DNA of 64,000 bases from Anaerolineae bacterium (GTDB taxonomy: Bacteria > Chloroflexota > Anaerolineae > Aggregatilineales > Ch27), in contig JABLXG010000001.1 in assembly GCA_013178165.1 (NCBI GenBank), positions 17,605 through 81,604 of the forward strand. The letters are read 5' to 3'. The notes below the pieces were generated by a model. It did not search any database. It was not told the DNA's origin and was given only the letters and a program-made list of their open reading frames with translations. Shown here piece by piece: positions 1,001-24,278 of the stretch. The translations under genes and the position numbers were made by a program. Position 1 is the first letter of the stretch. Each line of letters opens with the position of its first letter.

Positions 1001-2016
1001 AGTGTCCGATCTACCGCTTCAGCCACCCGGCGCAATTCCTGCATCATCTTAGCGAAGCGTTCCGGAGTCAGCGACTGCATACCATCGGAGACAGCTTCTT
1101 CCGGCCTGGGATGTACCTCGACAATGATGCCATCCGCACCAGCGGCGATGGCCGCGCGGGCTGCGGGGGCCACGTACTGCCAGTAACCGGTGGCGTGGCT
1201 GGGATCGGCGATCACGGGCAGGTGGGTGCGTTCCTTAAGGACGGGGATGGCGTTGAGATCGAAGGTATTGCGGGTGTAACGCTCAAAGGTACGGATGCCG
1301 CGCTCGCACAACATCAGGCGGGTGTTACCGTGGCTGAGGATGTATTCAGCGGACATCAGCAACTCCTCGATCGTGTTGCTCATGCCGCGCTTGAGCAATA
1401 CCGTATGTTGCGCCTTGCCAACAGCGTGCAATAGCGAGTAGTTCTGCATGTTACGCGCGCCGATCTGGAGGACGTCGGCGTAGTCGCAGACCAGCGGGAC
1501 GCTTTCCGGGTCCATGACTTCCGTCACGACCGGCAGGCCGGTTTCCTCCCGCGCCTCAGCCAGGTACTTCAGCCCCTCTTCGCCCAGACCCTGGAAGGCG
1601 TAGGGCGACGTGCGCGGTTTGAACGCGCCGCCGCGCAGGGCAGTCGCGCCAGCTTCTTTGACGGCGTGGGCGGTTTCCAGAATCTGCGCGCGGCTCTCCA
1701 CTGAACAGGGGCCGGCGATCACCACGATTCGCGTGTCGCCCACCTGGTGATCGTTGAGGGCGACCAGGGTGTTATCCGGATGGAACTCCCGGCTGGCCAG
1801 CTTGTACGGATGGCTGACCGGCATTGTGCGCTCCACGCCATCCATCAGTTCGAATTGTTCGCGGTACTGCCGGACGCTACCATCCCCGACAATGCCGATG
1901 ATGGTACGCTCCTGACCGCTGCTGAGGTGAGCTTCGTAGCCAAGTTTCTTGATCTTGGCGATTACCGCAGAAATCTCTTTGGTTGAGGCGCCAGCCTTCA
2001 TCACAACAATCATCAT
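997..2016 (-). CDS. aroF: DAHP synthase, class I-beta, with N-terminal regulatory domain
   Basis: [50 protein letters not shown] and DGMQSL motifs. Confidence 0.96.
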
Positions 2017-2451
2017 TCATTTCTCCTTGGCCCCGGTAGGGCTATCACTATTGTCAGGCGCGGGCGTAAGGTTCAGAGCGCGGTCTGGTCGCAGGATTTC
2101 TGCACCGCGCAGGTAGATATGCCGGATTTCGTGCTGGGGGAGGTGGGTGTTCCAGTGGATAAGGATGCGGATACAGCGGGGTAGGCTGCCCGGTGGCGCG
2201 ATCTCGACGGCGCTGAGCAGGGCAGTGTCCTGCCAGCCGATCTGGCGCGCCGCCGTGGCCGGGTAGGCGCTGGTCAGGTCCGGTGTGGCGGTGAAGATCG
2301 CGCTGGCGACATCGGCCTCTTCAATGGCATTGGCGGCGATCAGCGCCCTGAGTAATTCCCGTGTGACGCGGTGGATGTCCTCCGGGGTATCGGCGTCGGC
2401 CACGGTAGCGCCGCGAACGCCCCGGCATACTCTGGGGGGAAGATCGACCAT
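2017..2451 (-). CDS. aroH: Chorismate mutase, AroH class
   Basis: RGVRGATV, SAIFTATPDL..AYPA, LPRCIRILIH and HIYLRGAEILRPD. Its stop abuts the aroF start. Confidence 0.93.
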   Translation of the reverse strand: MVDLPPRVCRGVRGATVADADTPEDIHRVTRELLRALIAANAIEEADVASAIFTATPDLTSAYPATAARQIGWQDTALLSAVEIAPPGSLPRCIRILIHWNTHLPQHEIRHIYLRGAEILRPDRALNLTPAPDNSDSPTGAKEK

Positions 2452-2480
2452 GATGCCTCTCCTTCCAGCAGCTCCCTGAT

Positions 2481-2514
2481 AACAAAAAAGCGCAGGGGCG
2501 TTAGCCCTGCGCTT
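2481..2514 (-). terminator. Intrinsic terminator of the aro attenuator
   Basis: mRNA sense AAGCGCAGGGC-TAAC-GCCCCTGCGCTT followed by a T run (TTTTGTT), about 30 nt upstream of the aroH start. Confidence 0.88.
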
Positions 2515-2545
2515 CCCTCAACCCGATGTGATGCGTCGTCAGCCG

Positions 2546-2653
2546 CTAACGCCTGCGTCCGTTATGTCGCTTCGCGTAAAAGTAGAAGCCAAAATAGCCG
2601 CCGGAGCGGTAGGAGAAGTGGTTTTCAACGGCGAAGCGAACGGACTCAGGCAC
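2546..2653 (-). CDS. Phe/Tyr-rich attenuation leader peptide, 35 aa (below the ORF-track cutoff)
   Basis: AGGAG followed by a GTG start; translates to MPESVRFAVENHFSYRSGGYFGFYFYAKRHNGRRR* with 5 Phe and 4 Tyr. The stop lies within the antiterminator strand. Confidence 0.85.
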   Translation of the reverse strand: MPESVRFAVENHFSYRSGGYFGFYFYAKRHNGRRR

Positions 2654-2686
2654 GCTGACAACTCCTGTGCAACCTGATTTGGCTAG

Positions 2687-2715
2687 AGCATAGCCGGATT
2701 ACCCGGTGCTGTCAA
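2687..2715 (-). promoter_or_regulatory. Sigma70-type promoter of the aro leader and operon
   Basis: TTGACA (2715-2710), a 17 nt spacer and TATGCT (2692-2687), directly upstream of the leader RBS. Confidence 0.8.
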
Positions 2716-2758
2716 CAAATTCGCGGGCAGCTTTGTGCAGGTTAACCCGGAGTCTGCA

Positions 2759-3745
2759 CTACCAGCGGTGATGGACGTGCTGGCGGATATAGCGATTGTA
2801 GACCTCGGCGACTTTCTCCATGTAGGGTTTCGACAGGGGAGCCAGGTCTGCCGCAGCAATGTTCTGGCGGGCCTGGTCGGGCCGCTTGATGCCAGGGATA
2901 GCGCAGGTCACCGCATCGAACATCGTGATCCAGCGCAGCGCAGCCTGAATCATGGTATAACCCGGCGGCAGAGCGGCTTTCAACTCCTCAACCGCCTGCA
3001 GGCCGACTTCGTAGGGCACGCCGGAGAAGGTCTCGCCTACATCAAAGGCTTCTCCATAGCGGTTGTAGTGGCGATGATCATCCGCGCTGAACTGCGTTTG
3101 AGGCGTCATCTTGCCGGTCAGCAGGCCGCTGGCCAGCGGGACGCGAGCCAGGATGCCCACCTGTTTCTGCCTGGCCACGGGGAAGAACTCCTCAGCTGGT
3201 TTGAGGCGGAACATATTGAAGATAATCTGGACACTCTGGATGTTCGGGTAGCGTTCGATGGCGGTGAGCGCCTCGCTCACCTTTTCCACACTGATGCCGT
3301 AGTAGCGGATCTTGCCCTCCTGCACCAGACGTTCCAGGGCCTCAAAGGTGGAATCCTGGGTGTACACCGGCGTTGGCGGACAATGGAGTTGAACCAGATC
3401 GAGCGTTTCGGTGTCAAGATTCTTGAGGCTGCGCTCCACAAACGCCGACAGATTGGCGTAATTGTAGCCTTCCGGGATATGGGGGTTGAGACGGCGGCCG
3501 GCTTTGGTAGCGACAAAGACGCGCTCCCGACGGCCCTTCAGCACCTGGGCGATCAGGCGCTCGCTGCGTCCATCACCATAGACATCAGCGGTGTCGATGA
3601 AGTTGACTCCCAGGTCAATCGCGGTGTTCAGCGCACCCAGGGCATCCTCTTCACTGACGCGGCCCCAGTCGGCGCCAATCGCCCAGGCGCCGAAACTGAT
3701 GACCGATACACGCATGTCGGTGCGACCTAACTGCCGGTATTCCAT
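2759..3745 (-). CDS. Aldo/keto reductase
   Basis: MEYRQLGRTDMRVSVISFGAW, GVNFIDTADVYGDGRSE and DLVQLH. Start moved to ATG 3745, which has a GGAGGAG RBS. Confidence 0.92.
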   Translation of the reverse strand: MEYRQLGRTDMRVSVISFGAWAIGADWGRVSEEDALGALNTAIDLGVNFIDTADVYGDGRSERLIAQVLKGRRERVFVATKAGRRLNPHIPEGYNYANLSAFVERSLKNLDTETLDLVQLHCPPTPVYTQDSTFEALERLVQEGKIRYYGISVEKVSEALTAIERYPNIQSVQIIFNMFRLKPAEEFFPVARQKQVGILARVPLASGLLTGKMTPQTQFSADDHRHYNRYGEAFDVGETFSGVPYEVGLQAVEELKAALPPGYTMIQAALRWITMFDAVTCAIPGIKRPDQARQNIAAADLAPLSKPYMEKVAEVYNRYIRQHVHHRW

Positions 3746-24205: not shown

Positions 24206-24278
24206 TGCCGAGGCCCAGACTTGAACTGGGGACCCCTTGATTTTCAGTCAAGTGCTCTACCAACTGAGCTACCTCGGC
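24206..24278 (-). tRNA. trnF: tRNA-Phe (GAA), CCA not encoded
   Basis: GCCGAGGTAGCTCAGTTGGTAGAGCACTTGACTGAAAATCAAGGGGTCCCCAGTTCAAGTCTGGGCCTCGGCA: 7-bp acceptor stem, CTTGA/TCAAG anticodon stem around GAA, TTCAA T-loop. Confidence 0.96.

Follow-up and report, generated by a model that had tools for sequence, protein, structure and literature searches.

A probable phenylalanine/tyrosine leader-peptide attenuator ahead of the aroH-aroF-tyrA-aroA operon in an Anaerolineae bacterium of the phylum Chloroflexota

Leader-peptide attenuation is a textbook form of transcriptional control in Proteobacteria and is documented in Actinobacteria and a few Firmicutes. Here we describe a candidate from Chloroflexota, found in a 64-kb stretch of DNA from an Anaerolineae bacterium (contig JABLXG010000001.1, positions 17,605 to 81,604 of the forward strand), the whole of which was analysed and is referred to below as the window. 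At one end of the window, on the minus strand, four genes of aromatic amino acid synthesis, aroH-aroF-tyrA-aroA, are preceded by a promoter, a leader reading frame of 35 codons that is rich in phenylalanine (Phe) and tyrosine (Tyr) codons, and an intrinsic terminator. We consider it very probable, from folding, modelling and comparison with related loci, that these elements make up a ribosome-mediated (leader-peptide) transcription attenuator that controls the operon, and sequence comparison suggests that the leader is evidently one of a sizeable family of Chloroflexota attenuators that has gone unannotated.

The genes of the operon were identified through their domains. AroH, a chorismate mutase, matches PF07736 (E = 3e-42) and lies above the cutoff of TIGR01796, while the 3-deoxy-arabino-heptulosonate 7-phosphate (DAHP) synthase and TyrA were assigned from Pfam and NCBIfam. 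The aroA gene runs beyond the window; its ortholog in L001, the locus with the closest AroH, is a full match to PF00275 and a complete 5-enolpyruvylshikimate-3-phosphate (EPSP) synthase. The gene names given in an initial annotation, which had been read from the letters of the window, are thereby upheld. Among relatives the core of the operon is aroH-aroF-tyrA, and in several of them the prephenate dehydratase gene pheA is inserted to give aroH-pheA-aroF-tyrA (for example L004 3412-4242, with an ACT domain detected, and L014 3420-4280), at a position where the window operon has no pheA. With pheA inserted, the operon there serves both the Phe and the Tyr branch, in line with a mixed leader. 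What the leader encodes follows what the operon encodes in another lineage as well, where aroH-tyrA is preceded by leaders with Tyr codons only.

Upstream of aroH, the promoter, the ribosome binding site, the leader with nine Phe/Tyr codons and the terminator that the initial annotation had described were all recovered base for base on the minus strand. The promoter is the only promoter-like site in positions 2000-3200 (shuffled sequences average 0.4), and transcription is predicted to start at approximately 2680. Six of the nine Phe/Tyr codons fall within the run YFGFYFY, which is the sole stop-free stretch of eight codons with at least five Phe/Tyr in the 64-kb window, all six frames considered; at 60.6% G+C, the composition of the window works against Phe (UUY) and Tyr (UAY) codons. 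A scan of the window for further small reading frames in which an amino-acid run is followed by a terminator gave this locus alone. No public collection has a gene call for the exact leader peptides, on the evidence of one of 15 billion proteins. A leucine-rich frame (KPLLLPLRRLFWLLLLREAT, 2562-2621, minus strand), shifted by one over the same bases, was considered and rejected; it has no ATG, GTG or TTG start and is therefore unlikely to be translated.

Table 1. Features of the attenuator region and of the operon that follows it, in window coordinates (nt, nucleotides).
Feature	Position	Strand	Details and basis
Sigma-70-type promoter	2687..2715	minus	TTGACA 2715-2710, 17-nt spacer, TATGCT 2692-2687
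Inverted repeat CCGGGTAATCCGG (CCGG-N5-CCGG) within the promoter spacer	2694..2706		Between -35 and -10; from alignment
Shine-Dalgarno sequence of the leader, AGGAG	2662..2666	minus	8 nt ahead of GTG 2653
P1 5' strand (anti-antiterminator or protector)	2631..2662	minus	Start codon, codons 1-8 and the bases immediately before the start
Leader reading frame, peptide MPESVRFAVENHFSYRSGGYFGFYFYAKRHNGRRR	2546..2653	minus	GTG start, 35 codons, UAG stop 2548-2546
Control codons UAU UUU GGC UUC UAC UUU UAC	2576..2596	minus	Y F G F Y F Y, codons 20-26
P1 3' strand	2535..2575	minus	Overlaps the antiterminator strand and the leader stop codon
Antiterminator upstream strand, CGCAGGCGUUAGC plus GCUGACGACGC...	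2525..2557	minus	CGCAGGCGUUAGC is 2557-2545 and holds UAG; from folding
Intrinsic terminator, GCGCAGGGC-UAAC-GCCCCUGCGC then U6	2484..2514	minus	Arms 2512-2504 and 2499-2490; U6 2489-2484
aroH, monofunctional chorismate mutase type I, 144 amino acids	2017..2466	minus	Ribosome binding site GGAAGGAGAGG 2466-2456, ATG 2451; first regulated gene
aroF-type DAHP synthase, class I-beta, N-terminal ferredoxin-like domain, 339 amino acids	997..2016	minus	Pfam, NCBIfam
tyrA, prephenate/arogenate dehydrogenase, 303 amino acids	89..1000	minus	Pfam, NCBIfam
aroA (EPSP synthase), first 30 codons	1..90	minus	Gene runs beyond the window

The RNA transcribed from the leader folds well below the energy of its dinucleotide shuffles (z = -3.2). 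The terminator hairpin (2512-2490) has a free energy of -15.6 kcal/mol and is separated from the leader stop codon by a spacer of 33 nt, and A2514-A2513 are able to pair with the first U residues that follow it. Folding shows this terminator clearly where a simple pattern scan gave no match, although its perfect stem of 8 base pairs (bp), its 7-nt loop and its U6 fit the rules of that scan. The antiterminator is a helix of 13 bp, with a 2-nt bulge, between 2557-2545 and 2505-2491; its upstream strand includes the stop codon, and the helix continues inward with 2542-2525 against 2519-2507; together these use up the 5' arm, loop and 3' arm of the terminator. A third structure, the hairpin P1, joins 2662-2631 with 2575-2535 and is the minimum-free-energy fold of the whole leader; it places the control codons in its loop and is then followed by the terminator. 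Both long helices of the initial annotation, an antiterminator that contains the stop codon and a duplex of 2645-2631 with 2575-2557 around the control codons, were thus recovered by folding, the second as the core of the larger P1.

The effect of a ribosome on these structures was modelled with a footprint scan, in which the A-site codon and 12 nt downstream are covered, the RNA behind the ribosome is ignored, and the readout is the equilibrium probability of the terminator stem. This probability is 0.6-0.8 with the A site on codons 2-20, drops to 0.0-0.3 only with the A site on F21-K28, and is back at 0.7-0.8 from R29 to the stop codon. The difference between the ribosome at the stop and the ribosome in the stall amounts to 0.80, a value reached by one of 300 dinucleotide shuffles of the 63-nt spacer, and the step immediately after the Phe/Tyr codons is reproduced in eight of nine close relatives. 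The switch obtained in the model is the dependence on ribosome position that attenuation demands. For a ribosome stalled on Tyr-26, folding restricted to the RNA in front of it gives the antiterminator as the best structure, with a free energy of -27.7 kcal/mol, compared with -25.7 kcal/mol when the terminator is enforced.

Relatives of the locus were found by a scan with the AroH protein, taking one genome per species, followed by a metagenome scan and by look-ups of closer AroH homologues. The AroH scan assigns the window to Chloroflexota. The closest AroH relative, L001, comes from a Chloroflexota metagenome-assembled genome and is 92% identical, and 92-99% identical as a locus; Anaerolineae and Ardenticatenales come next. 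Nine window-type sequences were aligned (alignment A1), and conservation is concentrated in the promoter hexamers (the -35 invariant, the -10 nearly so), the ribosome binding site and GTG start, the Phe/Tyr codons, GCGACATAACG, the antiterminator strand GGCGTTAGCG and the terminator. Variation is free in the N-terminal half of the peptide and in the spacer, the latter being the most variable part. All nine sequences keep the GTG start, and the Shine-Dalgarno sequence is retained as AGGAG, TGGAG or AGGAA in eight of them and is TTGAG in L128. Eight of the nine have the cluster as Y-F-(G/W)-F-Y-F-Y(-Y), and L128 has C for the first Y; throughout the cluster TAT interchanges with TAC and TTT with TTC, aromatic identity being retained while the flanking peptide diverges. 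Such synonymous interchange is, on this alignment, a signature of selection on the meaning of the codons. The nine Phe/Tyr codons to which the initial annotation had drawn attention are accordingly reduced to a conserved core; only the six of YFGFYFY persist, and F7, F13 and Y15 are altered in L001.

The helices are conserved in different ways. The terminator sequence is invariant in eight of nine relatives. RNAalifold, applied to the nine, recovered only the terminator and small helices and neither P1 nor the antiterminator, after which these two were assessed as named structures. In P1, 77% of alignment cells pair, compared with 26-47% for slid controls, and nine pairs change on both sides, a number that 3 of 500 shuffles reach. 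For the antiterminator, pairing is kept in 94% of cells of the main helix and in 89% of cells across the whole named structure, the latter compared with 23-51% for slid controls; its one compensatory pair (G2546:C2504 to U:A in L128) stands at a position that only closes the terminator loop. The antiterminator is therefore weak as covariation and strong as conservation, because both of its strands are almost invariant. An alignment of aroH upstream regions, which the initial annotation had proposed as a check, thus agrees with it in the Phe/Tyr codons, kept synonymously, and in the compensatory pairs of both helices.

Beyond the window-type sequences, the arrangement recurs widely. At least 45 related aroH loci carry a promoter, a Phe/Tyr leader and a terminator, and these belong to Chloroflexota/Anaerolineae where named. 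In all 14 Chloroflexota-type genome loci, a small reading frame dense in Phe/Tyr codons, in some cases with tryptophan (Trp), lies no more than approximately 250 nt upstream of aroH and is followed by a strong terminator and U-run, most of the 14 also having a recognisable promoter; their leaders include MKHINFFFSFYFYFWSHRRRSAAL, MRFQLHTTGFYFYYSSPP..., MTTQRPGSGFFFGYYYFGPDN..., MEQRNLNPAKTYTYYYFYFSGPS... and MSLTLDNRFATIYIYFTSPPAAASRRVDA. Stretches with at least five Phe/Tyr in eight codons occur within 260 nt upstream of aroH in 10 of these 14 loci, and elsewhere in the same loci there are two; upstream of aroH in the loci retrieved from Gemmatimonadota, Actinomycetota, Cyanobacteria or other phyla there are none. 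The leader is absent from most aroH loci of other phyla. The metagenome scan added at least 22 further loci with a Phe/Tyr(/Trp) leader and a strong terminator before aroH, and the look-ups of closer homologues added seven more distinct window-type relatives, as well as near-identical duplicate contigs. A cultured member of the class Chloroflexia, Kallotenue papyrolyticum JKG1, has a version of its own (L129 1226-1420, from JAGA01000003.1 at about 887-890 kb), in which a TTGACA-17-TATAGT promoter and the leader MKRIISSNWFYFYFFTGARQAADR are followed by a hairpin GGGAGCGUG..CACGCUCCC with a weak U-tract and then by aroH-aroF-tyrA.

Across relatives, the last control codon lies 63-106 nt and the stop codon 25-44 nt before the 5' arm of the terminator, every leader-bearing relative has a terminator of -12 to -26 kcal/mol, and promoters comparable to that of the window precede the leaders of the more distant ones. 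The balance of Phe and Tyr varies from Tyr-dominated (YTYIYF, FTYIYIY) to Phe-dominated (FFFSFYFYF). The antiterminator of distant relatives conforms to the classical 2:3 type. In 18 loci a strand GCUUC(A/G)CG, placed 19-26 nt beyond the last Phe/Tyr codon and 15-24 nt short of the leader's end, forms 8-12 contiguous bp with the terminator 5' arm CGUGGAGC. The strength of this duplex exceeds that of shuffles (p <= 0.05) in 13 of 35 loci; about two such loci would be expected. In approximately half of the distant relatives the stability of the terminator precludes a switch at equilibrium, and transcripts cut off before the 3' arm served as a proxy; in these the 5' arm is sequestered (0.7-0.9) only with the ribosome at or before the Phe/Tyr codons and is freed 2-6 codons later. 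A dip at equilibrium is also seen in about half of the distant loci.

Two side observations concern the leaders themselves. Most distant relatives have proline (Pro) within 2-5 codons after the Phe/Tyr run, often as Pro-Pro(-Pro), for example in YFIPPPAAAS and YFVPPCRG; L004, L008, L009, L011, L013, L014, L056-L058, L065, L075, L079 and others have this Pro, and window-type leaders are without it. The Pro could serve as a brake on translation, keeping the ribosome on the antiterminator strand, or could simply reflect a C-rich helix strand. A second type of leader occurs in a lineage of high G+C content, with Tyr-only small frames such as MNSRSLVRRSYYAAYPPPGWDTA, a terminator CCCACUUCCG..CGGAGGUGGG-U5, and then aroH. 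Such leaders are present in L046 (2805-2876; labelled Candidatus Eisenbacteria), approximately 100-200 nt upstream in L097/L116, L098 and L104, and possibly in L047, L108 and L126; in L046, the Tyr-only locus that reaches that far, tyrA follows aroH. Three loci from bins of PRJNA950955 (L005, L012 and L020, labelled Chitinophagales, Bacteroidota and Patescibacteria), with 65-69% G+C, carry aroH-X-aroF-tyrA, an order resembling that of the Chloroflexota loci, and are without a Phe/Tyr leader; their taxonomic labels look doubtful.

Taken together, these features suggest the following course of events. Transcription would begin at approximately 2680 and a ribosome would start on the 35-codon leader. 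With Phe-tRNA and Tyr-tRNA plentiful, the ribosome would reach the stop codon at 2548-2546, where its footprint (approximately 2563-2531) would mask the antiterminator strand; the terminator hairpin and U6 would then form, and RNA polymerase would stop before aroH, at 2484-2489. With either Phe-tRNA or Tyr-tRNA scarce, the ribosome would stall within YFGFYFY and its footprint would end near 2563, so that 2557-2525 would be free to pair with 2519-2491; the 5' arm, loop and 3' arm being engaged in this way, no terminator would form, and chorismate mutase, DAHP synthase, TyrA and EPSP synthase would be expressed. In an untranslated leader P1 would lock the antiterminator strand, and the default state would therefore be termination. 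Ribosome stalling and the response to both amino acids are parts of the model that we infer, and queued ribosomes or steric hindrance would presumably prevent the P1 5' strand from re-pairing during a stall.

Several points weigh against this model. All of the evidence is computational, and the model presupposes a coupling of transcription to translation in Chloroflexota that we infer. When the footprint is merely set unpaired and the upstream RNA is included, the P1 5' strand re-pairs with the antiterminator strand, and the terminator has a probability of approximately 0.8 wherever the ribosome stands. Folding with and without the ribosome footprint, as the initial annotation had suggested, therefore yields the switch when upstream RNA is excluded and loses it when that RNA may pair, and so the model needs either steric exclusion or trailing ribosomes over 2662-2631. 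A stalled ribosome melts just the inner 9-13 bp of P1, whose 5' strand lies 35-85 nt upstream of the control codons; the 19 codons ahead of the cluster would leave room for one or two queued ribosomes to cover 2662-2631. In free energy the antiterminator and terminator states differ by only about 2 kcal/mol, and the duplex energies of the antiterminator strand of the window are, taken alone, unexceptional for GC-rich sequence (p = 0.16-0.18 against shuffles). Covariation in the antiterminator comes from a single sequence, and 72 of 500 shuffles reach it.

In its class the element is familiar. A short frame with its own ribosome binding site before the first gene, codons for amino acids of the pathway, an intrinsic terminator and, in silico, a mutually exclusive antiterminator are all present, as in trpL and pheL; functionally it is an attenuator of the pheL/trpL class, without sequence homology to any curated leader family. 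Rfam leader families (Phe_leader, Trp_leader and others) gave no match at gathering score, none on 2400-2780 at E <= 10, and none among 20 related loci. The T-box likewise had no Rfam match in the window, at E <= 10 on 2400-2780, or in 20 relatives, and the four weak matches at E <= 10 are neither T-box nor leader family. The only Rfam match of the window at gathering score is a tRNA gene (24206-24278, minus strand).

Like pheL-pheA of Escherichia coli, the element combines a Phe-rich short leader, a terminator before a gene of the aromatic branch and mutually exclusive helices, and completion of the leader would favour termination; unlike it, the leader has 35 codons with alternating Phe and Tyr rather than 15 codons with Phe only. 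The operon here also comprises genes of the common pathway (DAHP synthase and EPSP synthase) together with chorismate mutase and TyrA, where pheL controls the single gene pheA, and the two share no sequence similarity. With E. coli trpL it has in common the logic of protector (1:2), antiterminator (2:3) and terminator (3:4), a stop codon in or next to strand 2, and, as predicted here, termination when the leader is untranslated. In trpL, however, the control codons and stop codon are within strand 1, where the ribosome stalls, whereas the present control codons occupy the P1 loop and the antiterminator strand engages the loop and 3' arm of the terminator besides its 5' arm. The pheL/trpL-type geometry that the initial annotation had recognised is consequently right in its logic and differs in its strict form, in that the 5' strand of the protector is upstream of the control codons and the antiterminator draws on the loop and the 3' arm.

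The closest functional counterpart we found is aroR of Corynebacterium glutamicum, which is also the only experimentally supported mixed Phe/Tyr attenuator that came to light (Neshat et al. 2014, as summarised in PMC11802643). As presented in that summary, aroR is a mixed Phe/Tyr leader before a DAHP synthase operon (aroF), and the resemblance is one of function; it differs in belonging to Actinomycetota, in having only three control codons, and in responding to Phe but not to Tyr. The Actinomycetota aroH loci that we retrieved have no leader of the present kind. Firmicutes T-boxes occupy the same niche, in that tRNA charging upstream of aro, phe and tyr genes decides which of the two forms, a terminator or an antiterminator; they differ in that translation of a leader is unneeded and in their specifier loop and conserved T-box sequence. 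Seliverstov et al. (2005; PMC1262725) reported no RNA elements for Phe or Tyr genes in Actinobacteria, while Naville and Gautheret (2010; PMC2965389) wrote that leader peptides were, to their knowledge, unshown outside Proteobacteria and Actinobacteria, to which they themselves added Firmicutes. We found no description of attenuation or leader peptides in Chloroflexi/Anaerolineae in the searchable literature, with which priority is not fully settled.

A separate feature of the locus is the inverted repeat in the promoter spacer. Its arms correspond to alignment columns 39-43 and 47-51, which pair, with compensatory changes in L137 and L138; in these two loci CGGGT..ACCCG and AGCG..CGCT form equivalent spacer palindromes that differ in sequence. 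The repeat lies upstream of the predicted transcription start, so that any role would be at the level of DNA, and it may be a candidate operator for a repressor or other protein, and hence a second layer of control.

Sensing of both Phe and Tyr is a plausible property of the attenuator, suggested by the strict alternation of Phe and Tyr codons, by the content of the operon and by the Tyr-only leaders of a separate aroH-tyrA lineage. The same kind of attenuator might instead effectively sense one amino acid, likely Phe, with its Tyr codons tolerated or mainly shaping the RNA. This would fit aroR, whose Phe-Tyr-Phe leader is reported to respond to limitation of Phe and not of Tyr (PMC11802643), and the variable Phe/Tyr balance among the leaders of relatives. 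We regard it as rather unlikely, since Phe and Tyr are both kept at each position of the cluster in the nine close relatives despite synonymous drift, and since the operon encodes TyrA of the Tyr branch and, in relatives, PheA of the Phe branch as well, the Tyr-only leaders again pointing the same way.

A further possibility is that, besides its action in cis, the terminated leader RNA (approximately 195 nt) or the 35-amino-acid peptide acts in trans, as rnTrpL and peTrpL are described to do in Sinorhizobium (PMC6614838 and PMC7298713). In favour of it, close relatives largely preserve AKRHNGRRR, the 3' part of the peptide, as well as portions of the RNA; that tail, however, coincides with the antiterminator and P1 strands, and its conservation is explained by constraints on the RNA, while among wider relatives it is the composition of the peptide and not its sequence that is conserved. 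An additional role in trans thus seems improbable.

T-boxes and protein-mediated attenuators control aromatic genes in other lineages of Gram-positive type, and the switch might in principle be worked by such a factor (tRNA through a T-box, a small molecule through a riboswitch, or an RNA-binding protein), the reading frame being incidental; the palindrome in the promoter spacer, too, could bind a protein. Against this, conservation covers the frame, start, ribosome binding site and Phe/Tyr codons but not the remainder of the peptide, Rfam (with its T-box model) gave no match at gathering score for the leader of the window and none in the twenty relatives, and no conserved core resembling a ligand pocket lies between leader and terminator, where the spacer is most variable. 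We consider a non-ribosomal switch very improbable. Least credible of all is that chance has placed a fortuitous small reading frame by the ordinary terminator of the upstream aldo-keto reductase gene, for although that gene (3817-2759) has the same orientation, its end lying 247 nt ahead of the terminator, and GC-rich sequence yields many spurious helices, a strong promoter intervenes between it and the leader, the Phe/Tyr cluster is unique in the window, the modelled switch was matched so rarely by shuffles (1 of 300), and comparative data already contradict the idea, leader and terminator accompanying aroH beside differing upstream neighbours (a tRNA in L002, an epimerase-family gene in Kallotenue).

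A ribosome-mediated attenuator is, then, the reading that we prefer for the window. A broader version may be entertained tentatively, though we doubt that it will hold in full: that mixed Phe/Tyr(/Trp) leaders form a family that spans the phylum Chloroflexota, that this deep-branching phylum, unlike Bacillus, couples transcription and translation tightly, that one leader senses two amino acids as a logical OR for the common aromatic pathway and that, in many relatives, Pro-Pro directly behind the Phe/Tyr run acts as a brake on a ribosome that has not stalled. The mechanism itself is familiar, and the element differs in its geometry and in its mixture of Phe and Tyr control codons; the lineage, Chloroflexota, is little studied. 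What makes the attenuator worth attention is this lineage, the size of the family, the coupling of transcription and translation that it implies, and the cultured carrier, the prediction being testable because Kallotenue papyrolyticum has a version of the leader. If the conserved family is real, it would give a direct annotation to an 'intergenic' region that recurs in many metagenome-assembled genomes, would offer indirect evidence that Chloroflexota couple transcription to translation, and would represent a natural case in which a single leader integrates two amino acids in the control of DAHP synthase, the entry enzyme, together with the enzymes of the branches.

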